A stretch of 64,000 bases of DNA from Candidatus Latescibacterota bacterium (GTDB lineage: Bacteria > Latescibacterota > UBA2968 > UBA8231): contig CBDCSU010000005.1 of assembly GCA_965221775.1 (NCBI GenBank), forward strand, positions 224,001 to 288,000, read 5' to 3'. The notes under the pieces are model-generated. The model saw nothing but the letters and a program-made list of their open reading frames with translations, searched no databases and was not told where the DNA came from. Below, piece by piece: positions 3,892-58,901 of this stretch (positions within the stretch are counted from its first letter, which is position 1; every line of letters starts with the position of its first letter). A program made the position numbers and the translations under genes.

Positions 3892-3921
3892 AATATAGAG
3901 AGTGGAAAAAAAGAGCGTCAA
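3892..3921 (-). promoter_or_regulatory. sigma70-type promoter for tRNA-Gly
   Basis: TTGACG-N18-TATATT on the minus strand just upstream of the tRNA 5' end. Confidence 0.65.
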
Positions 3922-6900: not shown

Positions 6901-7102
6901 GCGGACCTTCCTGCTCTACGCCGACGGCTTCGGCAAGGACATGGACTTCCACTCCGCCCACTCCCTCACCGTCGAGCCCCTGCCTTTCCACGGCATGTCC
7001 CGCTACCCCTACGGCCCGGACGAGAGCTACCCCGCCACGCCGGAGCACGTGCGCTACGTGCTCGACTACAACACGAGATGGGTGAAGGGCTACTACCGCT
7101 AG
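3902..7102 (+). CDS. TPR + FG-GAP/VCBS repeat + ASPIC/UnbV lipoprotein
   Basis: SD GGAGGAGG; lipobox LGC; TPR helices; many DxDxDGDxD repeats; LHFGL...V.WPSG ASPIC/UnbV motif; C-terminal SCP.LYAWDG domain. Confidence 0.85.
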   Translation: MEKKSVKAVGAACIALAAGLGCGGDGGRVLPPQARWHNNQGVVYMDQHNYVRGREHFEEAARLAPGYATARANLGIALYSLGKYDSARVALGQALERDGGHLHALYTLGLIDHAQGRDYAAALDRFRKVAARDGEDPLVWYFLGRTHAKVGRADSAVAAYERAIALDPTHLSAHYALAQELRQQGDLEAWRRTLDRFDQLSRAGVEGVSSAYQGQGKYAEALAEGRFGGGGAGSGGGLRFRAAADLAAGEGPLLFLTPVDADGDGDADVVAGTGRGPLLLNNGDDGLLAGAAWDLEGVPAARGLVFADVDDDGDADAAWSGDGLRLLRQDEGGRFRLSDESLAPAPGTALFGDVDHDGDADLIAAGPGLVLWANDGTGAFADATAAARLAVPGVEAAVLSDFDDDRDVDILAGGRSLGLYGNNRDGTFTDAAGRRGLEAGGVTGLAVADLDPDGRMDVLVVTADGARLHANRGTAFEAVPVPAPDGARQVLPADFDNDGDLDLLWVGPEGARTAVGQGSDFQPAGADLGPGPWAILDADSDGRLDVLAGRKRWLNDSDAGNWLAVDLSGRNSNPDGFGAKVVVSTALGQQKRELRGGAGDPPLLHFGLAGSDSVEFVSVLWPSGVRQTELASAAGRRLELMELDRKGTSCPVLYAWDGSGFGFVSDFLGGAIIGYLTAPGQYYTPDTDEYLPLRRLEAKDGSYVLQVANQLEEIVYLDAAELVAVDHPAGLRLEPNERLLSAPPYPPFRTYAVSRTRPLASARDGEGRDAGAELARIDDIWYEGFARSDIHGYAGESTLILDLGDLRDWPHPVLLAHGWVDYAHSSSNWAASQRGLGRAPPRLEVDHGEGWRLATADMGTPAGLPKTMLVDLDGLFPAGTETARLRITTRACVYWDQFLLGQAEPEAPRRVHRRRFEADLHWRGYPAHESVRGTFAFRYHYERLRTEALWGTHAGAFTRHGDVTELVAAVDDRFAILRHGDELTLEVEAGAFPPVPAGWERTFLLYADGFGKDMDFHSAHSLTVEPLPFHGMSRYPYGPDESYPATPEHVRYVLDYNTRWVKGYYR

Positions 7103-7115
7103 GGGAGCTGCGCGG

Positions 7116-24416: not shown

Positions 24417-24722
24417 ATGAGGAAACACCTGCTGCACTGGACCACCGGGCTCGGCCCGACCCTGCTGTCGTCCCAGGCGGCGGCGCAGGACGACCTGACC
24501 GAGGTGCCGCTGGTTCCCAGCCCGTCAATGACCCCGGTCGCCTCGCCGGCCACCTCGGGCCGCGCCGGGTCACGTCCATGCCCGAGGGCATGACCTGGAG
24601 ATCGACGGCGCGACGACGCGGTACCGCCTGCGCGGGCAGGAGCGCGATCCCGGCCTGCTGCCGGGGGCGCTGATCCTGGCGGGCGGGCTCAACGGCATCC
24701 AGGTGATGGAGGTTCCGAGATG
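24417..24722 (+). pseudogene. Probable frameshifted remnant of an exported protein
   Basis: SD + ATG with a signal-like start (MRKHLLHW...AAAQDD) closing at 24593; coding-like segments continue in the other two frames. Confidence 0.35.
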
Positions 24723-25463
24723 GAGATCGCCGCCCGCGGCCTGGCCAAGCGCTTCGCCTCCGGCGTCGAGGCACTGAGCGGCGTCGATCTGGCCGTCGGG
24801 CGCGGGCGGTTCGCCTCCGTCGTCGGGCCTTCCGGCTGCGGCAAGTCCACCCTGCTGCGGCTGGTGGCCGGCCTCGAGGAACCATCGGGCGGGGCCCTCT
24901 CCGTCAACGGGCGAGCCCCGCGGGCACGCGGCGCCGACGACTTGGGATTCGTCTTTCAGGACCCCACCCTTCTGCCCTGGCGCTCGGTGGCCGGCAACGT
25001 CGGGCTGCCCCTGCAACTGCGCCGCACTCCCGACCCGGGGCGGGTCCGTGAACTCCTCGAGCTGGTGGGCCTCGCCGACTTCGCCGACGCCTTTCCGGCG
25101 CAGCTCTCCGGCGGCATGCGCATGCGCGCCGCCATCGCCCGGGCCCTCGCCATCGGCCCCCGGCTGCTGCTCCTCGACGAGCCCTTCGGCGCCCTCGACG
25201 AGATCACCCGGCAGCGCCTCAACGAGGAACTGCTGCGTCTGTGGCAGGCGGACGGCTGGACCGGCCTCTTCGTCACCCACAACGTGGCGGAGGCGGTCTT
25301 CCTCGGCCAGCAGGTCCTGGTCATGAGCGCCCGGCCGGGGCGGATCCTGGCCGACATCGACGTTCCCTTCGAGTACCCGAGAGATCCGCTCCTGCGCACG
25401 GCGCCGGAGTTCATCGGCCTGGCGGGAGAGATCTCACGCCGGCTGGCCGAGGCGGACGCCTGA
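24720..25463 (+). CDS. NitT/TauT family ABC transporter ATP-binding protein
   Basis: GPSGCGKST, LSGGM, LLLDEPFGALD, VTH. Confidence 0.93.
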   Translation: MEIAARGLAKRFASGVEALSGVDLAVGRGRFASVVGPSGCGKSTLLRLVAGLEEPSGGALSVNGRAPRARGADDLGFVFQDPTLLPWRSVAGNVGLPLQLRRTPDPGRVRELLELVGLADFADAFPAQLSGGMRMRAAIARALAIGPRLLLLDEPFGALDEITRQRLNEELLRLWQADGWTGLFVTHNVAEAVFLGQQVLVMSARPGRILADIDVPFEYPRDPLLRTAPEFIGLAGEISRRLAEADA

Positions 25464-39691: not shown

Positions 39692-40129
39692 TCACCGCTT
39701 CCACTTCTTGCCGCTGGCATCCTTCCCTCTCCTGGCACCCCCGGAACCCGCTTTCCGGGCGCTCTCCACGAGGAAGCCGATGAACCGCTTCTGACCGAGG
39801 GTCTTCAGGTAGGAGAGCAGGGAAACCTCCGCCTCCTTGCGGTCGAGCTTGTAGCGGTCCCGGAGGCCTTCGATCATGTCGGCCACGGAGTTGCGGCCGT
39901 CGCACATCTGCCAGACCTGGGCGCCCACCTCATCGAGGGTGATGGTCCGCTTCTCGGGGATGTAGAAGAGCTTCGACAGGAGTCGGGTCTTCCAGGTCTC
40001 CTGCCGGGTCACCGTGATCCGGACCTCACCCTCCTCGGTCTTCTCCCACGCCAGCAACTCGTTGCGGGCCGGCCGCGACTCCAGCATGGCGTCCCGCGTC
40101 AGCCGCGGCTTCTTCTTCGTGGCAAACAT
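39692..40129 (-). CDS. Stand-alone PqqD-family (RiPP recognition element) protein
   Basis: LDEVGAQVWQMCDG..SV..MI..L...Y......AE.SL..YL..L..K.FI winged-helix signature; ATG at 40129. Confidence 0.85.
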   Translation of the reverse strand: MFATKKKPRLTRDAMLESRPARNELLAWEKTEEGEVRITVTRQETWKTRLLSKLFYIPEKRTITLDEVGAQVWQMCDGRNSVADMIEGLRDRYKLDRKEAEVSLLSYLKTLGQKRFIGFLVESARKAGSGGARRGKDASGKKWKR

Positions 40130-41144
40130 ATCCGTCAATGACCTCGTCGAGGGTGTCGCCGCCCTGCTCGCTCTTCTTGAACAGATGCTCGACGATGCAG
40201 ATGCGATTCTGGTCGGGGCAGTGCCACACGGCGCCCCGCAGGTGGCGCCTCGGCCTCGGGTTGACGAAGGGCAGGGGCCGCAGCACCTGGCGCCAGCGGC
40301 TCTGGGGCCGCCCGGTGACACTCAGGCCTTCGTGGCCCCGGAAGTCGGACCGGGCGATCTCGTGGTTCACGTCGCGCAGGTCCTTGCGGAAGAAGGAGGG
40401 GTACCAGTCGGAAAGGTTGGTCCCCTTCAGCAGCATGTGGGCCATGCTCAGCCGGTGCACGCGCAGGACCTGGGCGCCGCCGTCCTTCTCGAAGGTCATC
40501 TTCACGTGGCCCGACTTCAACTCCTTCTCGGTGAGCTCGAAGTCGGCGGGGGCGTGGAAGGTGAGGCCGTACAGGCTCCAGTACTGCAACTTGCCGCGCG
40601 GGTGGTCCTCGAGGGTGGGCAGGACCTCGTTCACCAGGCCGATCGCGCCGACGCCGTCGTCCTTTGCCGCCAGCACCCGCAAAAGCACGATGCGGCCGCA
40701 GTCCGGACAGGCGCGGGCCAGGTTGTAGGCCCGGTAGTCGGCCTCCCAGATGAAGGTCTCGTACTCGCTTCCCTCGAGCCAGCGCTTGTCCTGGAGGAAC
40801 TTGGCGCGCCGCTCGACGCGCAACTCCATGCCCGCCTTGTCGGCCTTCTTCTGCAGCTGGGAGATATAGCGGCTTACGAGATCCTCCACGGGCCGGCGGA
40901 TGCCCCGCTTGGGAGGCGCCCGCCACTCGACCTCGGCCCGCACCATGCGCGTGTCGTCGAGGCGGGCGTAGCCGCTGGCGGCGTCGCCGTCGACCCGGCC
41001 CATCTCCCACTCCTCCGGGACGCGCAGACGGATCCCCTGCCAGCCGAAGTCGTAACGCCGGCCCCCCCCGGCCTGGGATGTCCCCGCAGGCTGCCGGGCC
41101 GGGGCCCCGCCTTCCACGGCCGGCAGTCCGTCGCTCGCGGACAT
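40026..41144 (-). CDS. Conserved hypothetical protein with internal duplication (PsbP/DcrB-like halves)
   Basis: Two halves: WQGIRLRVPEEWE...CPDCGR...EDH and LYGLTFHAPADFE...CPDQNR...VCH. Confidence 0.7.
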   Translation of the reverse strand: MSASDGLPAVEGGAPARQPAGTSQAGGGRRYDFGWQGIRLRVPEEWEMGRVDGDAASGYARLDDTRMVRAEVEWRAPPKRGIRRPVEDLVSRYISQLQKKADKAGMELRVERRAKFLQDKRWLEGSEYETFIWEADYRAYNLARACPDCGRIVLLRVLAAKDDGVGAIGLVNEVLPTLEDHPRGKLQYWSLYGLTFHAPADFELTEKELKSGHVKMTFEKDGGAQVLRVHRLSMAHMLLKGTNLSDWYPSFFRKDLRDVNHEIARSDFRGHEGLSVTGRPQSRWRQVLRPLPFVNPRPRRHLRGAVWHCPDQNRICIVEHLFKKSEQGGDTLDEVIDGYVCHEEEAAADAGRHAGVAAGPQRVAGVGEDRGG

Positions 41145-41168: not shown

Positions 41169-43649
41169 CTAGAAGATGAGGACCGACACCGACTTCTGGA
41201 TCAGGGCGATGGAGATCGACGCCATGCCCATGAGCGCCATGCCGCAGGCGAAGCCGACGGCGAGGACGGGCGCATAGGTGCGCCACTGTTGTCGTCCGTA
41301 GCGGTTCCAGAAGTAGTACCGGGCCAGCATGGCGCCGATGACTTCGGTGATCATCCAGTGGGGGATCGTCGTCAGGGCGCGCACGTAGCCGAAGACGAGG
41401 AGGATGGGCAGCCCGAAGGCCGACAGGAGGATGTAGCTGCCCAGGCCGACGACGGTCCCGGCGACGATGAGGTTCGGCTTGATGGCGCGGAAGAGCCAGG
41501 GCTCGTCGGTGGAGCGCTGGATCCAGGGGCTGGTGAAGTTCGGGTCGGTGTCGACGGCGAAGTAGTACTCCCAGCCGGCGGGCAAGGTCTGGGCGCTGGA
41601 GGCGAGGAGGGCTGGGCGAGGCGTGTCGACGACGCCGATCACCGGTTTCTCGCCCTCGACCAGCTCGGGGATGCGGTCCGGCGTGGCCACGGCGTCGCGG
41701 ATCAGGTCGGCGGCGTGGGGCAGGCCCGCGGCAGCCGGGCCTTCGGCGCGCACCTCGTAGCCTCCGGCCGGCGCCGCCTTCTCCAGGGCGCCGGGAGGCA
41801 GGGTCGGAACGTCTTCGGGCATACCCTCGCCGAAATGGGTGTAGAAGGCGCGCTTCTCGGACCAGGGGCCGGCCTCGCCGAGCTTGCCCTGCGACTCGAT
41901 CCACTTGCTGTCGGCGGCGCGCACGCGCCAGTACCACCACTCCCCCTCCACCAGGTTCGACGGCACCCAGGTGGCGCTGTTGCGCTCCGGCGACTCCTTC
42001 AGCTCGCTCTTCAGGGTGCCGGTGAACCAGATGCAGGTCTGCAGGGCCCGCAGGCGCCACATGACCTGGGCATAGGGGTACGAGGCCGAGGGGATGGGCG
42101 CCAGCTTCCAGATGTAGGAGGAGTAGAGGAATGTGGCGAAGAGGACGATGGGCACCATCACCAACTCGGCCTTGATGATGCTCGTGAACTTGGTGCCCGT
42201 GAGCTCGATCTCGCGGAACTTCTGGGTCTGGGAGCCGTAGTTGCCCAGCGGGAAGGGCATGAACCAGATGTCCACGCCCTGGTACCCGGAGAGGATGATC
42301 GTCGCCTCGCGCACGTAGGGGATCTCGATCGTCTGCCCCACCATGCCCACGAGGCGCGCGTTGACGAAGGACTGGAACGGCGTCAGCACGAACCCGAAGA
42401 ACAGGAAGAACCAGATGAACTGGTGGAAGGCGGGCAGGAAGATCCAGGCGATGACGATGAGGCCGGCGGCGGTCAGCCCGTACAGGGTCAGGGCGATCCA
42501 CATGGGGAAGTCGCCGCGCCCTTCGGGCACCGCCCAGGAACCGCCCCCTCCGCCGGAGGCCCTGGCGGCGGCGGCGTTTCGCAGCCCCTGCACGACCTGC
42601 CAGATGCCGATGAGGGCGATGGCGATGGTCGTGCCGATGCCGAAGCTCATCCAGAAGTCGACGGAGTTGACGAAGAAGGTCTCGATGGCGCCCATGCCGG
42701 GCTGCCAGATCTGCAGGTAGCCGAGGTCGTAGAGGATCGGGTTGGCCACCGAGTGGGCGACGACGCCGAGGAAAGTGCCCATGACCCCCCAGAAAGGCAT
42801 GACGAGGCCGGCGAAGATCGGCCCCAGGTGGGCGGTGAACCCGAGGGGGGTGGCGGGGATGAAGTTGCCCGTGACCTGCGTGAAGTCGACGAAGGGAATG
42901 GGGATCAGCTGGATCGGCTTGGTGAGCAGGGAGCCGGAGATCGCCGGGATCGCCACGTACAAGGTGCCGAAGACGAGGCCGATCATGGCCCCGGCGGAGA
43001 ACGCCCTCCAGCGCCACGACTCCACCCCCTGGGTGGTCTCGGCCAGGGCCGTGGCCCCCTGGGCGGCGACGGGCGCGAAGGGGAAGGGCAGGCGCTCGTA
43101 GTCGGAGTTCAGCCGGAAGAGGGCATAGGCCATGGTGAACCACGAGACCCGCGAGATCACGAACTGCGCCAGCAGCAGCGAGATGGGGATGATCCAGTCG
43201 GTGTGCAGGAAGGTCCGCTGCAGCAGCGCCGGCGACTCCAGGGGCGGCGCCCACCAGTCCGGGATCAGGTTGGCGATGCCGAACTGCTGCGCCGGCGGCG
43301 ACTGGCGCAGGTACTGGTTCCACAGCAGCCCCTCGAAGGCGCCGGTCTCGGCGGCGATCAGTCCCGCCGCCACGTAGTAGAGGACGTACACCTCCTGGCG
43401 CGTCAGGGAGGTGAAGGAGCGCTTGGTGATCTCGGCGAAGAGGATGATCGTCACCCACTCCGCCGCGGCGCCGAGGGAACCGCCCACCATGAGGCTGAGG
43501 TACATGTTCCCCGGGATCATGACGAAGGCGACGAAGAACACGCCGAGGATCGCCTTGCGCGTGAAGCCGTCCTCGAACTCGGTGGGCGTCTCGAGGAGGT
43601 CGCGGTACTCTTCGACTTCCTGGTTGGCGTTGCTCTTGCGTCTCAGCAT
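41169..43649 (-). CDS. OPT-like (oligopeptide transporter superfamily) membrane protein with inserted soluble domain
   Basis: Many TM helices; N-terminal GFT.KAILG..F...MIPGNMYL.L..G, L.FP.APV.A, WKLAPIPSA.YP; hydrophilic insert near the C-terminus. Confidence 0.7.
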   Translation of the reverse strand: MLRRKSNANQEVEEYRDLLETPTEFEDGFTRKAILGVFFVAFVMIPGNMYLSLMVGGSLGAAAEWVTIILFAEITKRSFTSLTRQEVYVLYYVAAGLIAAETGAFEGLLWNQYLRQSPPAQQFGIANLIPDWWAPPLESPALLQRTFLHTDWIIPISLLLAQFVISRVSWFTMAYALFRLNSDYERLPFPFAPVAAQGATALAETTQGVESWRWRAFSAGAMIGLVFGTLYVAIPAISGSLLTKPIQLIPIPFVDFTQVTGNFIPATPLGFTAHLGPIFAGLVMPFWGVMGTFLGVVAHSVANPILYDLGYLQIWQPGMGAIETFFVNSVDFWMSFGIGTTIAIALIGIWQVVQGLRNAAAARASGGGGGSWAVPEGRGDFPMWIALTLYGLTAAGLIVIAWIFLPAFHQFIWFFLFFGFVLTPFQSFVNARLVGMVGQTIEIPYVREATIILSGYQGVDIWFMPFPLGNYGSQTQKFREIELTGTKFTSIIKAELVMVPIVLFATFLYSSYIWKLAPIPSASYPYAQVMWRLRALQTCIWFTGTLKSELKESPERNSATWVPSNLVEGEWWYWRVRAADSKWIESQGKLGEAGPWSEKRAFYTHFGEGMPEDVPTLPPGALEKAAPAGGYEVRAEGPAAAGLPHAADLIRDAVATPDRIPELVEGEKPVIGVVDTPRPALLASSAQTLPAGWEYYFAVDTDPNFTSPWIQRSTDEPWLFRAIKPNLIVAGTVVGLGSYILLSAFGLPILLVFGYVRALTTIPHWMITEVIGAMLARYYFWNRYGRQQWRTYAPVLAVGFACGMALMGMASISIALIQKSVSVLIF

Positions 43650-43668
43650 GCTCGAGAGGGGGCGCGGT

Positions 43669-46600
43669 TCAGGCGGAGACGGAGCCGGCGGGGGCGCCGG
43701 AGAGCAGTTCCTGTCCCTGGCTCCGGTAGGCCTCCTTGGCCTCGGCGTCGACGGTGCGCCAGATGAGGAACTGCTTGCGGATGACGTTCATGAAACGCTG
43801 GTTGACGCGCCGCCACGAGGCGTCCTCGCCGCTCAGGCGCCGGATGTCGAGCTGGATCTGGTAGATGTTGTGCTCGGACTCGGGCAGGGCGCGGATGACG
43901 ACGTGCTGGCTCACCCCCAGGTCGAAGGGCGCCAGCCAGATGTTCATGTCGATGGTGTAGCCCTCGCCGTACTCGGAGTCGAGGCGGCCCAGCTTGGCGC
44001 CGTCGGTGTAGAAGGTCCCGATCGACTCCTCGGAGTAGGAGTCGAAGTAGCCGATGAGGAAGACCGACAGGCCGAGGACGTCGCGCCCCGCCACGGTGAA
44101 GGGGAACTCGAAGTGCCAGTCGTCCCCTTCGGGCCGCGGCAGCCGCCAGCGGCGGGTCACGTCGGGGACCGCCATCTGCGACGCCCGGCGCGCCGGGTAG
44201 ATGGTGGAGAGCATGACCACCGCCATCACCAGGATGCAGGAGAGCACCGCCGACAGGGACGAGTAGTTGAGGGTGAAGCCGGTGACCACCCCGAGCTGGG
44301 TGAGCAGGGTCGCCGTGATCTGACCGACGAGGTAGCCGGCCACCACCCCGAGGACCGAGTAGACGCAGGACTCGGCCATGAACAGCCAGGCGATGTGCCC
44401 CGGCGCCAGGCCCACGGAGGAGTAGATGCCGATCTCGCGGAAGCGCTCGTAGACGCTGCCCATCATCGTGTTGAGGACGATGAGGGCGGCGATGAGGATC
44501 GGCACGAAGAGGTTGGCCACCCCCGACAGCGAGGTCATGCCCAGGGAGCTGTAGATCGACACCTTGATGTAGTCGTCGCCCGGCTCCTGGATGCCGGCGA
44601 AGAGGGTCACCGCCAGGCGCGACAGGAACTGCTCGATCTCGGCGCGCTCGTCGACGCCCTCGTCGAAACGGATCGCCACCGACTGCAGGGGATTGCCGCT
44701 GCCCACGTTGCGCAGCGTGTGGTACGGCAGGATCAGGGTGTTGGCCGGCTCCAGGTGGACGAAGGGCTTGATCACCACCTGCGCGTCCTCGAGGCCCTGC
44801 TTCTCCCGCTGCTCCTCCTCGGCGATCTCCTGCACCGCCTGGCCGCCGGTGACGGCGAAGTCGGCGGGCGTCATCGTCTCGTCGTCGAGATCCTTCAGCT
44901 CCTTCATGCGCGTGGAGTTGATGATGCCGATGACGGTGAACCGCTCGCCGAAGACGCGCACCGTGACGCCGCCGGCGTCGACCTCGCCCATGTCGATGCC
45001 GAGCTTGTCGGCCCCGAGCATGTCGTTCGGCAGGATGCAGACCCTCTCTTCGCCCTCCCGGAACCAGCGCCCCGCCAGCAGGGCCTGGTCGAGGCCGGTC
45101 ACATCGGTCTCGGACGGGGTCAGGCCGAGGACGCCGAGGGCGTTATGGGCATCCTCGCCGTACTTGATCTTGATGTGGGCCTTCTTCTGGTTGTCGTACC
45201 AGCTCCGCGGCGCGATGGCGGCCCGGCCGCCGAAGTTGCTGTGGGCGTACTCGAGGACCGACTCCTCCAGCGGCGTCCACGCCTTGCTGCGGATCAGCAG
45301 GCCCTCGTAGAGCCCCTCGTTGTCGCGCTCGATCTGGTTGTAGCGCAGCGCCGTCTGGATGGACGTGAAGGACAGGACCGTGAAGGTGAGCAGCAGCAGG
45401 GTGACGAAGGTCAGCGCCGTGCGCAGCTTGCGGCGCTTCATGTTGGAGATGCCCAGGAGGAAGGCGGTGAGGGAGGCGCTGGAGCGGCTCACGTCGGTGT
45501 CGTGAATGACCGCCACCTCGGTGCGCAGCTTCTTCATCTGCTCGTTGAAGCGGCCGGAGATGATCCACATGACGAGGGCCGCGAGGACGAGGATGACGAA
45601 GGCCAGGAGAATGACGAAGGGGTTGGACAGCTCGAAGGCCGGGTGGACGAAGGAGAGGACGATCCAGATGACGAGGAAGATGCCGGCGAAGCCCATGATC
45701 TGGCGCTGGATCGTGGCGGCGGTGATCAGCAGGCGCTCGGCGAAGTAGGCGCAGGGCAGGACCAGGGCCATGAAGAAGATGATGCCCTGGATCACGTCGT
45801 TCTGGGTCGACTTGACGTCGGGATAGGCCCGCGACTCCAGGCCGATGGCGGAGCGCGTGTGGCGCACGAACTCGCTCCACTCCTTGCGCTCCAGGGCCGC
45901 CGCCGCCCGTTCCAGCTCCCCCCGGGCGCGTTCGTGCAGGTCGTTCAGACGCTGGTTCTCGATGGCGAAACTCCGCAGCTCGCGCATGCGGGCCTCGTCG
46001 AGGGTCCACATGTCACGGGCCGACTGGTAGGAGGTTCGCGCGAAGGAGGACCCCGGCTCCATGGCGAAACCCGCCCCCAGGGCCTCCTCCTTGTCGTCCG
46101 GGTTCTCGGAGTTCAGCAGCAGGGAGCGGAAGCCGAGAATGCCGGCGCCGAAGCCCATTTTCACCAGGGCCCCCGGACGGGCGAAGAGCACGCCCACCGG
46201 CTCGTCCTTGGCCGAGGGGCCCTCCCCGATGGTGTATCCGTACTCCACGGGGGAGGCGTTGGTCTCGTCGAAGACGGTGACCTCGGAGAGCTTGGTGAGG
46301 TAGCGGGGGTCGACGATGTCGAAGAAGTTGAAGGCGTGACACGGGAAGAGGACGACCATCCACTCCTTGTCGCGCCAGTCCATCTTGATCAGCATCGGGT
46401 AGGCCTGGTCGCCCTGGATGCCGCGGTCGGGCGCGTAGCTGACCCGTCCGGTGGCCGGGTCCATGCGGTAGCCCTCCACCTGGACCTGCTCGACGCGGAT
46501 GCGGTTGACGAAAAAGGCGCCGTCGCCGTCGACGACCTCGAAGTACTCGCCGCGCACGCCCTTGTAGGACTTCTTCTTGCCGTTGCGCACGACGCCGACG

Positions 46601-48480
46601 GCGCCGGTGCGCGGCAGGTCCGGCACGATGCTGCGCCTCGGGAAGACCATGGTCCGGGCCTTCAGGGAGCGCATCGTGTCCTTGAGGCGCATCTTGAAGT
46701 CGGGGAACAGCTCCGGGTCCTCGAAGGCCATGTGGAACATCCCCGCCAGGGCCCGGATCTGCCGCGAGAGGTTGTCGTAGCGGATGTGGTGCGCGCGGTC
46801 GAGAGGGGTGTCGACGAGGAACCGGGCGTCGTTCACGGTGACGAAGGCCAGGGCCGGTGTCCCCGTGGTCAGCACCAGCTCGCTGTTCACGGAGATCTCG
46901 CCGGGGACGAAGGTCTCCCAGCTCTTGCCCCCCTCGGGGCTGATGCCGTTCACCAGGACGTCGCGGAAGCTGTAACCGAGCTCGCGGCTCACCTTTCGCG
47001 AGTAGCCCATGAAGTTCTTGCCGAAGGGCGCGAAGTAGCGCTTGTAGTAGAAGCTCGAGTTGCTGTTCCAGATGCCGAGCTCGTCGGTCTGCGTCGACAG
47101 GTCGAGGCTGATGAACAGGTTCACGTCGAGGGAATCGACCTTCGGATCGACCCACTCGCGGTAGAAGCCCAGGCGCAGGTCCTCGTCGTCGCCGAGCTTC
47201 CTAAGCAACTCGTCGGAGGAGTCGAAGGAAGCCTGGCGGAGCTCGGACCCCTTCCTGTACCGGAGCCGCCAGTCGTCGCCGTCGCGGATGATCAGGTCTT
47301 CGCCGTCCGCCATGGAGGCCCTGGCCACGGCGCGCACGAGAAGGGTGTCGGTCTCGGCCACGGAGCGAACCAGCGCTTCCTTGCCGCTGAAGGTCTCCTC
47401 GCCGAGAAGGTAGGTGACCCCGTCCTCTCCCTCGCCGATCAGCCCGCGGGCCAGGGACGCTTCGATGACTCGGCGCAGGACCATGCGGTCGATGAAGGGG
47501 TTCTCGTCGCGCAGGTAGCGCTGGATGAAGTCGTCGATGCCGCGCAGGGCGAGGTGGTGGGCGGAGGTGGCGAGGAACAGGACCGAGCGCGCCGGGGGAT
47601 GCTCGCGGAAGTACCGGGCCAGCTCGAGCAGGGCCGTGATCCCCGCCGCCTGCTCGGCGCCGGGCGCGAGGGAGGGCACCACCGACATGGCGTCGTAGTA
47701 CGACTCCAGGACGATCACATCGTCCTGGAGCAGGGGGTCGTAACCGGGGATGAAGCCCATGACGTTCCAGGCCGGGCGCCGCTCCCAGTCCATGCGGTAC
47801 TCGAGGTGGGCCGAGGGCGGCCCGCCCGCGCCCTCGATCGCCTCCCGCAACAGTCCGCCATCCGGGCCGCTCACCCAGAACCGGGGCAGGTCGAGGGGCA
47901 TGGTGAGGAACTTCTTCTCGCCCTCCAGGTAGACGGTCGAGTCGGGCTCGATGAAGACGACGGCGGCGGCGCCCAGATAGGCGCCGTTGAGCCAGTTGTC
48001 GCCGGAGTTGAAGTCGAGGACGACGACGGCCCCCTCCACGTCCTGGCCGTCGAACTCCACGAACTCCCCCCGTCCGCCGTAGATCAGGGGCCCGTGGATG
48101 CCGCCGTCGGGCAGGGTCGAGGTGCGCACCAGGTTGGGCCACAGTCCGTGGAGCTCCACGGAGGGCCCTCCCGCGATCCTGAGACGTCCTCCCTGGTCGA
48201 CGGGCACGGAGACGTCGTACTTGTGGAAGGTGATGTCGTGCAGGCCGATCTGCCGGAACTGGCGGTGCACGTGCAGGGCCGCCTCCTCGGCTCCGGGATA
48301 GCCGGCCACGCGCGAACCGAGGCCCGAGAAGAACCCCACGGTCCGGCGCAGACGGTCCTCCGGCGCCAGCTGGCGGAGGGCCTCGAAGTCGACTTCGGCC
48401 GCCGCCGGCGCCGCCGCGAGGACGGCGAGCAGGCCGAGGGACCCCGCGCGCAGACGGAGAAACGGGCGCATATCGGTCAT
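43669..48480 (-). CDS. Giant fusion: signal peptide + PA/M28-like (nicastrin/nicalin-like) ectodomain + TM bundle + MacB/FtsX permease
   Basis: SRVAGYPG, PA domain, ESYYD...APGAEQAAG..ALLELAR; ISNMKRRKLRTALT; NTMMGSVYER.REIGI..SVG; YPARRAS. Alternative ATGs at 48471 and 48507. Confidence 0.85.
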   Translation of the reverse strand: MTDMRPFLRLRAGSLGLLAVLAAAPAAAEVDFEALRQLAPEDRLRRTVGFFSGLGSRVAGYPGAEEAALHVHRQFRQIGLHDITFHKYDVSVPVDQGGRLRIAGGPSVELHGLWPNLVRTSTLPDGGIHGPLIYGGRGEFVEFDGQDVEGAVVVLDFNSGDNWLNGAYLGAAAVVFIEPDSTVYLEGEKKFLTMPLDLPRFWVSGPDGGLLREAIEGAGGPPSAHLEYRMDWERRPAWNVMGFIPGYDPLLQDDVIVLESYYDAMSVVPSLAPGAEQAAGITALLELARYFREHPPARSVLFLATSAHHLALRGIDDFIQRYLRDENPFIDRMVLRRVIEASLARGLIGEGEDGVTYLLGEETFSGKEALVRSVAETDTLLVRAVARASMADGEDLIIRDGDDWRLRYRKGSELRQASFDSSDELLRKLGDDEDLRLGFYREWVDPKVDSLDVNLFISLDLSTQTDELGIWNSNSSFYYKRYFAPFGKNFMGYSRKVSRELGYSFRDVLVNGISPEGGKSWETFVPGEISVNSELVLTTGTPALAFVTVNDARFLVDTPLDRAHHIRYDNLSRQIRALAGMFHMAFEDPELFPDFKMRLKDTMRSLKARTMVFPRRSIVPDLPRTGAVGVVRNGKKKSYKGVRGEYFEVVDGDGAFFVNRIRVEQVQVEGYRMDPATGRVSYAPDRGIQGDQAYPMLIKMDWRDKEWMVVLFPCHAFNFFDIVDPRYLTKLSEVTVFDETNASPVEYGYTIGEGPSAKDEPVGVLFARPGALVKMGFGAGILGFRSLLLNSENPDDKEEALGAGFAMEPGSSFARTSYQSARDMWTLDEARMRELRSFAIENQRLNDLHERARGELERAAAALERKEWSEFVRHTRSAIGLESRAYPDVKSTQNDVIQGIIFFMALVLPCAYFAERLLITAATIQRQIMGFAGIFLVIWIVLSFVHPAFELSNPFVILLAFVILVLAALVMWIISGRFNEQMKKLRTEVAVIHDTDVSRSSASLTAFLLGISNMKRRKLRTALTFVTLLLLTFTVLSFTSIQTALRYNQIERDNEGLYEGLLIRSKAWTPLEESVLEYAHSNFGGRAAIAPRSWYDNQKKAHIKIKYGEDAHNALGVLGLTPSETDVTGLDQALLAGRWFREGEERVCILPNDMLGADKLGIDMGEVDAGGVTVRVFGERFTVIGIINSTRMKELKDLDDETMTPADFAVTGGQAVQEIAEEEQREKQGLEDAQVVIKPFVHLEPANTLILPYHTLRNVGSGNPLQSVAIRFDEGVDERAEIEQFLSRLAVTLFAGIQEPGDDYIKVSIYSSLGMTSLSGVANLFVPILIAALIVLNTMMGSVYERFREIGIYSSVGLAPGHIAWLFMAESCVYSVLGVVAGYLVGQITATLLTQLGVVTGFTLNYSSLSAVLSCILVMAVVMLSTIYPARRASQMAVPDVTRRWRLPRPEGDDWHFEFPFTVAGRDVLGLSVFLIGYFDSYSEESIGTFYTDGAKLGRLDSEYGEGYTIDMNIWLAPFDLGVSQHVVIRALPESEHNIYQIQLDIRRLSGEDASWRRVNQRFMNVIRKQFLIWRTVDAEAKEAYRSQGQELLSGAPAGSVSA

Positions 48481-48518
48481 GACCGGGTAATGATCGGCAA
48501 ACGGCATGGGCCCCGCAA

Positions 48519-49049
48519 TCACCGACCGGGGGCGGGGCCTCCCCCGTAGCCCGCCCTGGCCAGGGCCCGCACCGCGTAGTAGGTGATCAGCCCCGTCATC
48601 GCCCCGGAGAGGACGCCGCCCACCAGGAAGAGGGGCAGCAGCCGCAACAGACCCGCCTGGGCGAGATAGACCTCGGCCACCAGGAGCTGCGTCACCTGGT
48701 GGACGACGGCCCCCGCGACGCTCAGCCCCACGGGGCTCAACAGGCCGGGCAGGTATCGCCGCAGTCCGATCATCGCGGCCAGGCTCGTGAGGGCGGCGCT
48801 GCCCCCGATGACCGACGCCGGGCCGGCCAGACCGCCGCTCAACAGACCGCCGACGACGACCTTCACGGCGCTCACCGCCGCCCCCGGGCCGCCGCCGAAG
48901 AGGAGCAGCGTCGACAGGACGGCGGCGTTTCCGAGTCCGAGCTTCATCCACGGCAGGGGGCGCGGCACGACCGTCTCGAAGACGAAGAGGATCAGGGCGG
49001 CGGCGGACATCAGCCCCAGGAAGGCGACGCGCTTTGCGGGCGAGAGCAT
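48519..49049 (-). CDS. Gx transporter / heptaprenyl diphosphate synthase component I family membrane protein
   Basis: E...P.PLPWMKLGLGN, S.VG.SVAGA..H...QL motifs. Confidence 0.85.
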   Translation of the reverse strand: MLSPAKRVAFLGLMSAAALILFVFETVVPRPLPWMKLGLGNAAVLSTLLLFGGGPGAAVSAVKVVVGGLLSGGLAGPASVIGGSAALTSLAAMIGLRRYLPGLLSPVGLSVAGAVVHQVTQLLVAEVYLAQAGLLRLLPLFLVGGVLSGAMTGLITYYAVRALARAGYGGGPAPGR

Positions 49050-49543
49050 CAGCGGCTGACCCCGTCGAAGGAGGGACCGCCCTCCCCTTCGACCCGGACC
49101 ACCAGATGGTTGGGGACACAGACCGCCACGTCGCCCACCGCCCGCAGCCAGCCGCGGCGGACGCAGATCCGCCGGGCGCAGGGAGAGTCCACAACGCGGG
49201 CACGGCCGCCGTCGACCTCCACCGCGCTCACCCCGGCGGGGCCGGGCACCTCGATCCGCGCCGCCTCGTGCAGCGGCAGGAGACGCACGACCTCGCCTCC
49301 CACCTGCACGCTCGCCGCCCGGGGGGTCCCACCGCCGGGCCTCGCCACGAGCAGGGCCGCCGCCGACAGCAGCACCACCGCCGCGAGAACGATGTCGCCC
49401 GGGCTGGGAGGCAGGGGCCGGTACGGCTTGACACTCCCCCTGGGGCTGATTACACTGGCGAGAGCGCCGCGCAATGACGTATCTCGTTGTCGGCTATGGA
49501 GTAACCGCCGTTTCGCCGGGCCTGTTTCGAGGCCTCCGGACAC
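49049..49543 (-). CDS. NusG domain II (DUF1312) protein; true start probably nearer 49400
   Basis: GDI.L TM helix; SPC...ICV..GW......CVPN motif; TGATG coupling to the Gx gene. Confidence 0.8.
   Translation of the reverse strand: MSGGLETGPAKRRLLHSRQRDTSLRGALASVISPRGSVKPYRPLPPSPGDIVLAAVVLLSAAALLVARPGGGTPRAASVQVGGEVVRLLPLHEAARIEVPGPAGVSAVEVDGGRARVVDSPCARRICVRRGWLRAVGDVAVCVPNHLVVRVEGEGGPSFDGVSR
49428..49456 (+). promoter_or_regulatory. sigma70 promoter for relA/spoT
   Basis: TTGACA-N17-TACACT. Confidence 0.7.
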
Positions 49544-57089: not shown

Positions 57090-57132
57090 GCGCCGCGTTG
57101 GTCCACAGGTTCGTATCTTCTGGTCGGCATCC

Positions 57133-57165
57133 GCCCCGCCGCCGCAACCCAGACGGCGGCGGGGC
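57133..57165. terminator. GC hairpin between lamin-tail and CRTAC1-like genes
   Basis: GCCCCGCCGCCG-N9-CGGCGGCGGGGC. Confidence 0.45.
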
Positions 57166-57185
57166 CAGCACGACCTATCCGGACC

Positions 57186-58901
57186 ATCTCTCTGTCCCCT
57201 CTCTCCACCCTCCGCGGCTTCATCCTCCTGCTGGCCTGCCTCGGCTGCGGCGCTCCCGGAAGCCCTCCCCGGGCTGCGCCCGGAGTCTTCTCCGACGTTA
57301 CCGAGGCTTCGGGGATCGACTTCGTCCACGAGAGCGCCGCCGACGGCCGCTACGCCTACCCCGAGACGTTTGGCGCCGGAGCGGCCTGGGTCGACTACGA
57401 CGGAGACGGATGGCTCGATCTCTACCTGATCCAGGGCGGCAACCTGCTGCGCTCGGGAGGAACCCGCCCCCCTCCGACCAACCGGCTCTACCGGAACCTG
57501 GGTCGGAGGCCAGGCTCCGGCCTTCGGTTCACCGATGTCACCGAAGCCTCCGGAGCCGGGGACGAGGGCTACGGCATGGGGGGTGCCGCCGCCGACGTCG
57601 ATGGGGACGGCAGTGTCGATCTGTTCGTCACCAACGTCGGCCCGAACTCCCTGCTTCTTCAGAGGGATCGGCGGTTCCAGGAGCGATCGGCAGCCGCTGG
57701 CGTCGCCGATGCCCGCTGGGGCACGGGAACGGGCTTCGCCGACGTCGACCTCGACGGCGACCTCGACCTCCTCGTCGTCAACTACGTCCCTTTCGACGCA
57801 GAGCTCATCCCCGTCTGCCGGCGGGGCTCGATCCGCACCTACTGCGACCCGGACCGCTTTCCGGGAACCCTGGACATCCTTTACCTCAACGAAGGTGGTA
57901 CGGGGAAACCGGGATTCAGCGACGTAACCCTTCAGGCTGGCCTCAACGGCGTCGGACGCGGACTCGGGCTGGCCATGGCCGACATCGACCTCGACGGCGA
58001 CACGGACTGGTTCGTGGCCAACGACGGCGAGGCAAACTTCCTCTATCGGAACGACACCGGGAGCGGCGATCCCCCCCGCGTGACGGAGACGGGCCTGGCA
58101 TGGGGAGTGCGGTTCAACGCCGATGGCCGCGCCGAGGCCGGCATGGGCGCGGACTTCGGCGACGTGGACGGGGACGGCTGGCCGGACCTGGTGGTGGCCA
58201 ACTTCTCACGCGAGACCAACACCCTCTACCGCCATGGCGGCCCGGGGGACCCGGGTTACACGGACGAGACCCGGCCCCGCGGACTGGCTTCGCCCAGCTT
58301 CCTGCCCCTCGGCTTCGGCGCCGCCTGGTTCGACCCCGACGGCGACGGCGACCTCGACCTGGCGGTGGCCAACGGTCACGTCCTCGACCGCATCGCCGAC
58401 ATCGACAGCGGCCTGTCCCATGCCCAACCCGACCAGCTGCTGGTCAACGACGGCAGCGGACGCTTCAGCGAAGATCCGTCCTGGACTACCGGGCTCCCGC
58501 CTCTCGTGAGCCGCGCCCTGGCCGTCGCAGATTTCGACAACGACGGCGACGAGGATCTGATCGTCACCGCCAACGGGGCAGGTCCCCGCCTGCTGCGCAA
58601 CGAGCGAAGCGGGGGAACCTCGCTGAGCCTGACCCTGGTAACGATGGAGCCGGGCAACCGGAGCGGGCTGGGGGCCCTGGTCGAGGTCCGGACCGGCGGG
58701 CGCCTGCTCCGCCGCCAGGTTCAGGGCGCCGGCAGCTACCTCTCCGCCTCGGACCCGAGGGTCCACATTGGACTGGACGGTGCTCCCGGGGCGGCGGTCA
58801 CCGTGAACTGGCCCGGAGGCGGCCGCGAGCGCTGGGAGCTGGCCGCCGGCGCCCACACCCTGAGACAGGGAACCGGGTCCCCGGAGCACGGGCACCGGTG
58901 A
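57186..58901 (+). CDS. CRTAC1-family FG-GAP/ASPIC-UnbV lipoprotein (non-canonical start inferred)
   Basis: Frame open upstream of ATG 57576 with lipobox LACLGC, FSDVTEASGIDFVH, G.GAAW.DYDGDGWLDLY; AGMG.DFGD; GSYLS.SD.RVHIGL. Confidence 0.8.
   Translation: MSLSPLSTLRGFILLLACLGCGAPGSPPRAAPGVFSDVTEASGIDFVHESAADGRYAYPETFGAGAAWVDYDGDGWLDLYLIQGGNLLRSGGTRPPPTNRLYRNLGRRPGSGLRFTDVTEASGAGDEGYGMGGAAADVDGDGSVDLFVTNVGPNSLLLQRDRRFQERSAAAGVADARWGTGTGFADVDLDGDLDLLVVNYVPFDAELIPVCRRGSIRTYCDPDRFPGTLDILYLNEGGTGKPGFSDVTLQAGLNGVGRGLGLAMADIDLDGDTDWFVANDGEANFLYRNDTGSGDPPRVTETGLAWGVRFNADGRAEAGMGADFGDVDGDGWPDLVVANFSRETNTLYRHGGPGDPGYTDETRPRGLASPSFLPLGFGAAWFDPDGDGDLDLAVANGHVLDRIADIDSGLSHAQPDQLLVNDGSGRFSEDPSWTTGLPPLVSRALAVADFDNDGDEDLIVTANGAGPRLLRNERSGGTSLSLTLVTMEPGNRSGLGALVEVRTGGRLLRRQVQGAGSYLSASDPRVHIGLDGAPGAAVTVNWPGGGRERWELAAGAHTLRQGTGSPEHGHR

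Follow-up and report, generated by a model that had tools for sequence, protein, structure and literature searches.

Bacterial M28 aminopeptidases with a PA domain, such as those from Aneurinibacillus AM-1 (2ek8) and Bacillus subtilis (BSAP/YwaD; 6hc6), are soluble, active di-zinc enzymes, while glutaminyl cyclases, which have the common M28 fold, work with one zinc. In transferrin receptor 1 (TfR) and GCPII (family M28B), PA and M28 domains together form the ectodomain of a eukaryotic, single-pass membrane protein, and TfR is a non-peptidase receptor. Nicastrin and nicalin have the M28 fold but no peptidase activity, and both belong to membrane complexes as subunits: nicastrin, with a single C-terminal transmembrane (TM) helix, in gamma-secretase, and nicalin, together with NOMO and TMEM147, in the BOS complex. 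On the other hand, the type VII ABC proteins MacB, FtsX, and LolCDE have an FtsX four-helix domain in which a core domain separates TM1 from TM2, and the stretch between TM2 and TM3 of MacB is the contact for the ATPase. The acidobacterial duplicated orphan permeases (ADOP; TIGR03434) are FtsX-type proteins with two FtsX repeats, whose ATPase is not adjacent and which form large paralogous families. In FtsEX-EnvC, a degenerate metallopeptidase and an FtsX-type module regulate cell-wall hydrolases. A search of the literature found no type VII ABC member with an M28-fold domain.

The window analyzed here, a stretch of 64,000 nucleotides from Candidatus Latescibacterota bacterium (contig CBDCSU010000005.1), contains an open frame on the minus strand (43669-49203; all of the features below are on this strand). 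On the basis of the ORF listing, start codons, and translation, the whole gene was assigned to 43669..48507, with the stop codon at 43669-43671. The ATG at 48507 is the likely start codon, with alternatives at 48480 and 48471; the product is a membrane protein of 1612 aa from ATG 48507 or 1603 aa from ATG 48480, and the form analyzed (P0001) was the latter. The closest homologue (P0002) has 1612 aa and 97% identity. This is an inner-membrane protein with an M28-like head, in the order of signal peptide, head, stalk of ~300 residues, three TM helices, MacB/FtsX-type module, and cytoplasmic tail. A signal peptide or N-terminal hydrophobic segment (residues 1-28; 48397..48480), with a hydropathy peak at residues 12-30, is presumably cleaved. 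It is followed by the PA and M28-fold ectodomain (residues 29 to ~597; 46690..48396), assigned by Pfam, a profile search against PDB, the structure model, and VIA. The rest of the ectodomain (45796..46689) consists of a beta-rich part (~598-800) and long helices (~813-895), and no Pfam family was matched there. A beta-sandwich-like segment at 46450-46650 (residues 611-677), described in a sequence-only reading of this DNA, agreed with predicted strands, although these appear only in a stalk model (residues 596-940) with a pLDDT of only 53. Hydropathy gave seven TM segments after the ectodomain: three extra helices (residues 896-974; 45559..45795), TM1 of the FtsX-type module with a preceding cytoplasmic linker (residues 975-1041; 45358..45558), which has many invariant residues in alignment A1, and TM2-TM4 in the FtsX C-terminal transmembrane domain (residues 1318-1427; 44200..44529). 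A putative MacB-like periplasmic core domain (residues 1042-1317; 44530..45357) lies between TM1 and TM2. The C-terminal ~175 residues (43672..44199) form a cytoplasmic domain with invariant columns in A1, for which neither a Pfam match nor a usable ESM Atlas match was found.

Both the sequence profile and the alpha/beta fold of M28 were matched by the ectodomain (Pfam, PDB profile search, and VIA). Pfam Peptidase_M28 was detected at residues 239-320 with 28.8 bits (cut-off 21.3; E 1.2e-6), the match spanning only profile positions 1-78 of 193. When a profile of the family was searched against PDB, the best match was the aminopeptidase 2ek8 (E 9.4e-13, 50.6 bits), and other active aminopeptidases included YwaD (40.7 bits) and AAP from Vibrio (about 29-33 bits). 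The AlphaFold model of the ectodomain (pLDDT 78.9, pTM 0.81) gave the same picture: Foldseek ranked 2ek8 first (E 4.4e-22), and the VIA comparisons yielded Z 28.6 for BSAP (rmsd 5.3, 376 residues aligned), Z 27.6 for 2ek8, and Z 27.1 for AAP (1amp; rmsd 2.6 A, 264/291 residues), which itself has no PA domain. BSAP, 2ek8, AAP, and 3iib took the top places in three structure rankings (one by Foldseek and two by VIA). Alignments of 376-395 residues indicate that the PA domain is inserted where it is in the PA-aminopeptidases. Unlike these enzymes, the domain is anchored to a membrane module of the FtsX type, and its fold is split by a helical/beta insert of ~110 residues (about 330-445; 47146..47493), predicted to be mostly helical in the AlphaFold model and missing in a divergent clade (L008-L012 and L015; alignment A2). 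The M28-like domain resumes after this insert, its C-terminal half extending to ~46690, further than in the sequence-only reading, which had recognized the fold itself. VIA scores were also high for TfR (Z 24.4, 388 residues aligned, 21% identity) and glutaminyl cyclases (Z 24-25). The sequence similarity to TfR in the family profile was confined to the N-terminal/PA part (E 1.5e-4), and no Pfam match to the helical TFR_dimer domain was found in the protein at E <= 1.

The nearest relatives by sequence, and by fold among the structure matches listed, are thus active bacterial PA-aminopeptidases, and not nicastrin or nicalin, to which the sequence-only reading had compared the ectodomain; such a grouping with ordinary aminopeptidases is what that reading had itself named as evidence against the comparison. 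The match of nicalin to the family profile was marginal (21.8 bits, E 5e-4, 65 residues) and was exceeded by that of TfR (23.5 bits), while no nicastrin chain in PDB was matched at E <= 10. Neither protein was among the best 50 of the Foldseek ranking, of VIA on the top 1000 chains of Foldseek, or of VIA on 48,161 representatives, where the 50th place had Z 17.5; M20 enzymes and a GPI-transamidase chain (Z 19.7) did appear among the structure matches listed. A literature search on nicastrin, nicalin, and M28 aminopeptidases yielded nothing relevant.

The zinc ligands were mapped by HMMER alignments to 2ek8, YwaD, and AAP, and by MAFFT together with two canonical M28 proteins from the same genome. 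The motifs noticed from the sequence alone were all located: SYYD at residues 260-263 (47692-47703), GAEQAAG at 274-280 (47641-47661), SAHH at 306-309 (47554-47565), and the segment YDAMSVVPS...RSVLFL at 262-303. The five co-catalytic zinc ligands His, Asp, Glu, Asp, and His correspond to Y261, E276, H309, D460, and D557, respectively, and H308 stands where the general-base Glu would precede the ligand Glu. Y261-Y262-D263 (47692..47700) replaces H-x-D, the first zinc His being Tyr; among 151 distant relatives, position 261 is Y in 118, H in 14, and F in 8, and position 263 is D in 149. In the MAFFT alignment, E276-Q277 (47650..47655) takes the place of two residues of GAxD[DN]xSG, the bridging Asp and the Asp/Asn after it, in a motif shorter by one residue (position 276: E in 109 and D in 22 of the 151); the equivalence of E276 to the bridging Asp is only probable because HMMER sets the gap elsewhere than MAFFT. 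The alignments to AAP place H308-H309 (47554..47559) at the Glu-Glu pair of general base and zinc ligand. H308 is His in 145 of 147 residues read among the distant relatives; at position 309, the 151 include 79 with F, 21 with H, and 16 with Y. The second zinc-ligand Asp, D460 (47101..47103), is retained in the MAFFT alignment (D in 127/131 residues read), and D557 (46810..46812) replaces the last zinc His (VDTPLD in place of the canonical xHTxxD; D in 114/137). In close homologues (n=121), E276 (118/118), H308 (119/119), D460 (121/121), and D557 (121/121) are invariant, and H309 is kept in 115 of 119 sequences of the P0001 subfamily. The canonical ligand set was found in none of the 151 distant relatives. 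The spatial clustering of these residues in the model is assumed from homology.

As read from these alignments, the M28 head is without both of the zinc histidines and without the catalytic Glu-Glu pair. An M28-fold ectodomain with replaced ligand motifs, as the sequence-only reading had it, is confirmed by Pfam, the PDB profile, the fold, and the alignments. Since neither the usual co-catalytic zinc site nor the Glu base is present, this protein is not expected to be an ordinary M28 aminopeptidase. The replacements differ from decay because H308, D263, and D460 are almost invariant in the distant relatives.

The membrane part was assigned by Pfam FtsX (E 2.2e-15, 57.2 bits) and by MacB (5lil), which matched residues 1248-1436 (E 3.8e-11) in the PDB search. 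Pfam MacB_PCD between TM1 and TM2 gave 26.5 bits, just below the cut-off of 27, and PF12704 is precomputed for many close homologues. Although the four-helix domain is the same as in MacB, FtsX, and LolCDE, and the putative core domain would occupy the same position, this protein differs from them in the three extra TM helices, the N-terminal ectodomain of ~870 residues, the cytoplasmic tail, and the lack of a fused or neighboring ATPase. No ABC ATPase was found near this copy, the nearest ABC_tran being ~18.5 kb away in an unrelated cluster, and none adjoins the four paralogues; a separate MacB-type pair lies ~8 kb away in one region. In the lack of an adjacent ATPase, ADOP is similar, but it has no M28 head, and since the match to TIGR03434 (E 3.5e-8, 32 bits) was far below the cut-off of 622, the protein is not a member of ADOP.

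Docking of the core domain (residues 1042-1317) to the head (residues 29-605) was predicted with a score of 0.79, while the best of 3 controls scored 0.00. In the benchmark, this score is reached by 58/80 solved complexes and 2/110 mismatched pairs, counts that hold only roughly here because our own alignment was supplied. The contacts agreed between runs at >= 94%, and the pLDDT of the partner, the core domain, was >= 83. On the head, residues 464-467 and 550-554 are among the predicted contacts; these segments flank D460 and D557. The model supports, but is no proof of, binding of the core domain next to the region of the former active site, and the predicted interface is no more conserved than the rest of the domain (mean column entropy of 2.83 vs 2.23 in 151 relatives).

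The family is phylum-wide and multi-copy in Latescibacterota: there were 653 homologues at E <= 1e-3, at least 933 clusters (50% identity) at E <= 1e-30, 526 of 550 candidate stretches in GTDB species genomes, and members in 138 of 151 sampled Latescibacterota genomes, with five paralogues in the genome of the window. Directly downstream of the M28-FtsX gene is a polytopic membrane protein of 826 aa (mem826; 41169..43649), a syntenic partner at this position in 58 of 62 loci with enough flank. It has no Pfam family, and a PDB sequence search was empty at E <= 10. Assignment as an OPT oligopeptide transporter was rejected since the profile was not matched over its length (17.4 bits with the cut-off at 128, E 1.3e-3, over only 52 residues; 1/17 members of the 826-aa family matched Pfam OPT, E 1.6e-3). 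Homology to DUF6785 was not assigned either: the hhalign match (probability 46%, E 2e-4, 190 N-terminal columns) was too weak and BLASTP was empty. In the ESM Atlas, only the protein's own cluster was found, with the automatic name 'Peptide transporter family protein', which we regard as a lead and not as evidence. Further genes encode a conserved 372-aa protein (40026..41144; 56/61 loci), for which Pfam, NCBIfam, and PDB searches were negative, also with a profile of 15 sequences, and a PqqD-family peptide-binding protein of 143 aa (39692..40123; Pfam PqqD, E 5e-13; 56/61 loci).

The M28-FtsX family shows genetic linkage to polytopic DUF6785/DUF6784 proteins, and some of its members are fusions with them. 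DUF6785 is directly upstream in 37 of 60 loci, and P0140 (2120 aa) has FtsX, a weak MacB_PCD match (25.4 bits, cut-off 27), DUF6785, and DUF6784 in one chain according to Pfam; its M28-like head was matched by the A2 profile, but not by Pfam. The same 13 genomes, all belonging to one family, lack both M28-FtsX and DUF6785, and the occurrence of the two agrees in 150 of 151 genomes. This genome has 21 copies of DUF6785. In 12 other genome regions, DUF6785 genes were found amid catabolic genes (MR_MLE, GFO_IDH_MocA, LacI, SBP_bac_1, peptidase C25, amidohydrolase, lyase, and GH-like domains). Two paralogues of the M28-FtsX gene are flanked by M42/M20 peptidases, and a PPIase gene adjoins one. A PDB sequence search with a DUF6785 protein gave no significant match (best E 0.22), and a literature search found no papers on DUF6785/DUF6784.

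We infer, with a probability of roughly 0.55, that the protein is not a peptidase but acts in a nutrient-capture machine, as its receptor or coupling module. The head would be a ligand-binding and coupling module, no longer a co-catalytic zinc aminopeptidase, and a binding role, as suggested earlier from the letters alone, is plausible. The cleft region around the former active site would hold the periplasmic core domain of the same chain, and the FtsX module would be moved by an ABC ATPase encoded elsewhere; with the core domain in the cleft region, a mechanical coupling is proposed between the motions of this module and the state of the head. The unit would capture an extracytoplasmic substrate, most likely peptides, and pass it on to the neighboring polytopic permease, in this locus the 826-aa protein and elsewhere DUF6785 proteins. 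Synteny and fusion with permeases, the catabolic neighborhoods of DUF6785, the flanking M42/M20 peptidases, and PqqD in the operon were counted for uptake. On the other hand, no ABC ATPase accompanies this copy or the paralogues, the predicted interface is not unusually conserved, the OPT and hhalign matches tie the 826-aa partner only weakly to transporters, and a remodeled catalytic or metal site would be an equally good reading of the three conserved carboxylates and the near-invariant His in place of the general base. The most specific form of this proposal, in which an FtsX-type mechanotransducer with its core domain gripped in the cleft of the PA-M28 pseudo-peptidase drives or gates DUF6785 or a related polytopic importer, while the head captures peptides or other ligands, is distinctly unlikely to hold in all of its parts.

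An alternative is that the head has kept enzymatic activity through a rebuilt active site, trimming peptides or another polymer at the cell surface, with the products entering via the linked permease. Conservation of the replacing residues without drift argues for this, as does H309 within the P0001 subfamily, and the sequence-only reading of the domain as catalytically dead agreed with the loss of the zinc site and Glu base, but goes further than this conservation allows. An E151H mutant of AAP was deposited as 2anp under a title calling it 'functional', and the glutaminyl cyclases share the fold. Three arrangements may be imagined: a mononuclear site of E276, H309, and D557 (two carboxylates and one His, as in the canonical first zinc site) with H308 as the general base; a carboxylate-rich Mn/Fe/Ca site; or a metal-free His/Asp/Ser arrangement with the invariant S266. 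A metal site formed by the His-His pair, also raised in the sequence-only reading, is consistent with the near-invariance of H308; however, a site using position 309 cannot be general because F predominates there among the relatives. Both canonical histidines are gone in most members, no characterized clan MH peptidase is known to work without them, and the cleft region is covered by the core domain in the predicted docking. A rebuilt enzyme is therefore considered unlikely.

Regulation of envelope remodeling in the style of FtsEX-EnvC, in which the degenerate metallopeptidase domain and long helices would activate or position cell-wall hydrolases and nutrition would play no part, has a matching layout in its favor (degenerate peptidase domain, long helices before the membrane, and FtsX module), together with the N-terminal LysM and NMB0315 domain I of P0216, a distant member, and the PPIase gene beside one paralogue. 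This role is quite improbable given five paralogues per genome, the tight link to the expanded DUF6785 among catabolic genes, and a conserved operon without an amidase or M23 gene. A sensor of the BceAB type, in which a ligand at the PA/M28 head would be relayed to the cytoplasmic tail by the core domain and FtsX helices and regulate the neighboring transporter, is consistent with the conserved C-terminal domain of no known family, the orphan status with no ATPase nearby, and the predicted head-core contact; it is very improbable because the conserved operon has no kinase, response regulator, or transcription factor, and because the stretch between TM2 and TM3 aligns well with MacB, a sign of an ATPase partner and of work directed outward. 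A place in the nicastrin/nicalin lineage, as its prokaryotic member, is scarcely credible: the general M28 fold, ligand loss, membrane setting, and marginal nicalin match are shared, whereas active aminopeptidases were far ahead in the profile search, both proteins fell outside the best 50 of every structure ranking, and the seven TM helices with an FtsX module, the domain of life, and probably the partners differ.

The M28-like head has no bearing on the origin of nicastrin or nicalin. The protein joins two well-studied modules, the M28 fold and FtsX, in a combination absent from the literature searched, and its tie to DUF6785/DUF6784 by synteny, fusion, and co-occurrence connects it with a highly expanded membrane family in substrate-utilization loci. 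If the head-core contact is true, a peptidase cleft would here, in a bacterium, have been put to new use as a surface for coupling. If the uptake machine is also true, a type VII ABC-like module would function in import, a pseudoenzyme being its receptor, and a role would be assigned to DUF6785/DUF6784. Genome surveys of Latescibacterota tally M28 matches as 'nutritional' aminopeptidases (PMC4454575). Five M28-like matches in this genome are zinc-less heads of giant FtsX fusion proteins, and M28 counts that include such heads therefore overstate aminopeptidase capacity.

The product of the minus-strand gene at 43669-48507 joins a zinc-less head of the PA-M28 type to an orphan MacB/FtsX-type module; its family extends across the phylum and is linked to polytopic membrane proteins. 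In the six-frame listing, a single long frame (43669-49203) covered this region; since its upstream part overlapped another gene, the start was assigned to the ATG at 48507, or those at 48480 or 48471. The form analyzed here, P0001 (1603 amino acid residues; numbering used throughout), starts at 48480, while the length of the nearest database homologue (1612 residues) fits a start at 48507. The third-position G+C content (0.91) marked the minus-strand frame as coding. An opposite-strand open frame of 1712 amino acids (43411-48549, plus strand) was a by-product of the high G+C content (67-70%), and not a gene.

The Pfam Peptidase_M28 profile scored 28.8 bits (cut-off, 21.3) at residues 239-320, a match confined to its positions 1-78 of 193; the rest of the M28 fold lay beyond an insert of ~110 residues, which was absent from one divergent clade of the family (alignment A2). 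The motifs quoted in the sequence-only reading were all found: SYYD at residues 260-263 (47692-47703), GAEQAAG at 274-280 (47641-47661), and SAHH at 306-309 (47554-47565). When ligand positions were mapped by HMMER alignments and by an alignment with two canonical M28 proteins of the same genome, the first zinc-binding His corresponded to Y261, the bridging Asp to E276 (next to a one-residue deletion, the gap of which was placed differently by HMMER), the general-base Glu to H308, the ligand Glu to H309, and the last His to D557 (in VDTPLD); only the second Asp was retained, as D460. The proposed loss of the canonical M28 ligands was thus confirmed by alignment, whereas the lower bound proposed for the domain (47100) was not: it reaches ~46690.

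A profile of 42 family ectodomains, searched against PDB, matched the aminopeptidase 2ek8 (E = 9.4e-13), YwaD/BSAP (9e-10), the E151H mutant of Vibrio aminopeptidase (2anp; 1.5e-7) and its wild type (~4e-6), the PA part of the transferrin receptor (1.5e-4), and nicalin (5e-4), while nicastrin gave no match at E ≤ 10. The AlphaFold model of residues 29-605 (pLDDT 78.9; pTM 0.81) gave a concordant order in three structure rankings. Foldseek placed 2ek8, BSAP, 3iib, and PaAP on top, followed by the transferrin receptor and GCPII. VIA was run twice: among Foldseek's top 1000 chains, the Z values were 28.6 for BSAP (376 residues; rmsd 5.3), 27.6 for 2ek8, 27.1 for AAP (264 residues; rmsd 2.6), 24-25 for glutaminyl cyclases, and 24.4 for the transferrin receptor; among 48,161 representatives the order was unchanged, with GCPII (21.8), M20 enzymes (18-21.6), and a GPI-transamidase chain (19.7) lower down, and a Z value of 17.5 at row 50. 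Neither nicastrin nor nicalin was among the matches listed in the three rankings, which is an absence from lists and not a measured distance. By these sequence and structure results, the head groups with ordinary bacterial PA-aminopeptidases, and the kinship with nicastrin and nicalin suggested earlier was not borne out.

The REPLACEMENTS at the M28 ligand positions were conserved in both 121 close homologues and a wider set of 151 proteins (the query and 150 representatives of 50%-identity clusters). Among the close homologues, position 261 was Tyr in 114 and Phe in four; Y262, D263, and E276 were each found in 118 of 118, H308 in 119 of 119, H309 in 115 of 119, and D460 and D557 in 121 of 121. 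In the wider set, position 261 was occupied by Tyr (118), His (14), or Phe (8), position 263 by Asp (149), and position 276 by Glu (109) or Asp (22); Asp was read at position 460 in 127 of 131 and at position 557 in 114 of 137. None of the 151 proteins contained the canonical ligand set, and the canonical di-zinc site was missing in all relatives sampled. It is possible, if doubtful, that the site has been rebuilt as a catalytic one, in which E276, H309, and D557 would act together with H308. One new residue of the head, H308, was near-invariant (145 of 147 read in the wider set); on the other hand, H309 was confined to its own subfamily, position 309 being Phe in 79 of the 151 proteins, and His, Tyr, Cys, and Gly in 21, 16, 10, and 10, respectively. 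The "HH pair", suggested earlier as a possible alternative metal site, is conserved across the wider set in its first member only.

According to hydropathy and Pfam, the protein consists of a signal peptide (residues 12-30), an ectodomain (29 to ~895), three TM helices (896-974), a cytoplasmic linker (975-1022), TM1 of the FtsX-type module (1023-1041), a MacB-like periplasmic core domain (1042-1317; 26.5 bits against a cut-off of 27), FtsX TM2-4 (1318-1427; E = 2.2e-15), and a conserved cytoplasmic tail without a known family (1428-1603). MacB (5lil) matched residues 1248-1436 (E = 3.8e-11). The stalk (596-895), to which an earlier remark on a beta-sandwich applied, was modeled with low confidence (pLDDT 53). 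Some distant relatives carry extra N-terminal modules: LysM and NMB0315 domain I in P0216, and Big_5 Ig-like domains in P0194, P0211, P0236, and P0181; the three of these with both Big_5 and a Pfam FtsX match are up to ~3050 amino acids long. No ABC ATPase was found near the gene: the sole ABC_tran match of the window (24594-25460) belonged to an unrelated cluster, and none of the 73 in the genome adjoined the gene or its four paralogues, the exception being a separate MacB-type pair ~8 kb from one paralogue. A role as an envelope regulator resembling FtsEX-EnvC appears unlikely. An inward sensor, with the conserved tail on the cytoplasmic side, is more improbable still.

When the head (29-605) was submitted to complex prediction with the core domain (1042-1317), both taken from one chain, the docking score was 0.79, against 0.00 for the best of three controls; 58 of 80 solved complexes and 2 of 110 mismatched pairs attain this value, counts that apply approximately given that our own alignment was used. 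The runs shared at least 94% of contacts, with a partner pLDDT of at least 83. To our knowledge, there is no solved complex of this kind, and a docking pass by memorization therefore seems unlikely. The docking model supports but does not prove binding of the core domain to the head, with predicted head contacts at residues 183, 185-186, 464-465, 467, 504, 506-507, 518-520, 522-523, 526-528, 550-552, and 554, flanking D460 and D557; on the core domain, the predicted contacts fall within 1099-1111, 1175-1179, and 1258-1262. By homology, the head contacts would sit at the substrate entry of PA-M28 enzymes. However, conservation at the contact residues did not exceed that of the remaining head (mean entropy of 2.83 vs 2.23 in the 151 relatives), which counts against coupling.

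We found 653 homologues (E ≤ 1e-3) from Latescibacterota MAGs, named "FtsX-like permease family protein" or "M28 family peptidase" by their sources, and 8070, 1897, and 933 cluster representatives at E ≤ 1e-3, 1e-10, and 1e-30, respectively. Among the species genomes, 526 of 550 candidate stretches belonged to the family, which was present in 138 of the 151 sampled genomes of the phylum; the window's own genome encodes five paralogues. All 13 negatives were from one family (f10), in which 13 of 13 genomes searched (completeness of 64-97%) also lacked DUF6785. DUF6785 was found in 137 of the 151 genomes and was absent from the same 13; its presence agreed with that of the M28-FtsX family in 150 of 151, but, since the genomes are kin, the agreement counts as about a single evolutionary event.

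An 826-aa polytopic membrane protein (41169-43649, minus strand), with only faint transporter signals, was encoded directly downstream in 58 of 62 loci; a 372-aa protein of no detected family (40026-41144) and a PqqD protein (39692-40123) occurred in 56 of 61. The latter two genes (39692-41144, minus strand; L003:17190-18516 in a related locus) share ~50-100 bases, read in different frames, at many loci, as checked against ORF ends in L003, L027, and L028, suggesting tight coupling of the pair. Just upstream of the large gene are a Gx-transporter-like gene (Hpre_diP_synt_I) and a NusG_II-domain gene (48519-49543, minus strand); this position was kept in 54 of 60 related loci, often with DUF6785 between them and the large gene. 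Several FG-GAP/ASPIC-UnbV proteins, some with TPR repeats, occur in the window (3899-7099 and 57090-58898, plus strand) and near one paralogue (L086:346-3087 and 6835-8652).

In 37 of 60 loci, those of the divergent clade among them, the gene immediately upstream of the large gene encoded a DUF6785+DUF6784 membrane protein; the window contains no such gene. In the relative P0140 (2120 aa), FtsX, a weak MacB_PCD match, DUF6785, and DUF6784 occurred in a single chain, the M28-like head of which was matched by the A2 profile but not by Pfam; members of its cluster were named "DUF6785 family protein" by their sources. A 2215-aa open frame with a DUF6785 match, adjoining an M28-FtsX paralogue (L086:9955-16583; G000:C6:243955-250583), may be a similar fusion. 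DUF6785 had 21 matches in the window's 5.36-Mb genome, whereas 14 model genomes gave no match; DUF6785+DUF6784 proteins are highly expanded genome-wide (e.g., L104-L115), and related genomes contain as many as 88 first-look candidates. In 12 other genome regions, DUF6785 genes neighbored catabolic or utilization genes (MR_MLE, GFO_IDH_MocA, LacI, peptidase C25, amidohydrolase, lyase- and GH-like domains, and SBP_bac_1 directly downstream), suggesting that these proteins, which have no published function, are a family of nutrient importers. At L111:5926-9385 (G000:C4), an SBP_bac_1 solute-binding gene directly follows and overlaps the DUF6785/DUF6784 gene, with no ABC permease among the ORFs called, a hint that binding proteins may be partners of DUF6785 proteins.

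The M28-FtsX proteins are already predicted in databases and named by their domains, and the large protein is a variant on two kinds already known, pairing an M28 pseudo-peptidase with a type VII ABC-like permease; no paper on an M28-FtsX fusion or on DUF6785/DUF6784 was found in the literature searched. The head would function as a receptor and coupling module instead of a peptidase: its cleft region would hold the core domain, so that ATP-driven movement of the FtsX module may be coupled to ligand binding. The unit may capture a substrate for the adjacent permease, most likely peptides because of the aminopeptidase ancestry of the head, a carboxylate cluster to which an amino group could bind, an operon gene for a PqqD protein, and the M42/M20 peptidase genes adjoining two paralogues. 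The f10 genomes, which lack both families, can serve as natural negatives when further partners are sought by phylogenetic profiling. While the eukaryotic link falls away, what is of note is the architecture, the predicted contact between cleft and core, and the tie to a large uncharacterized family of membrane proteins.
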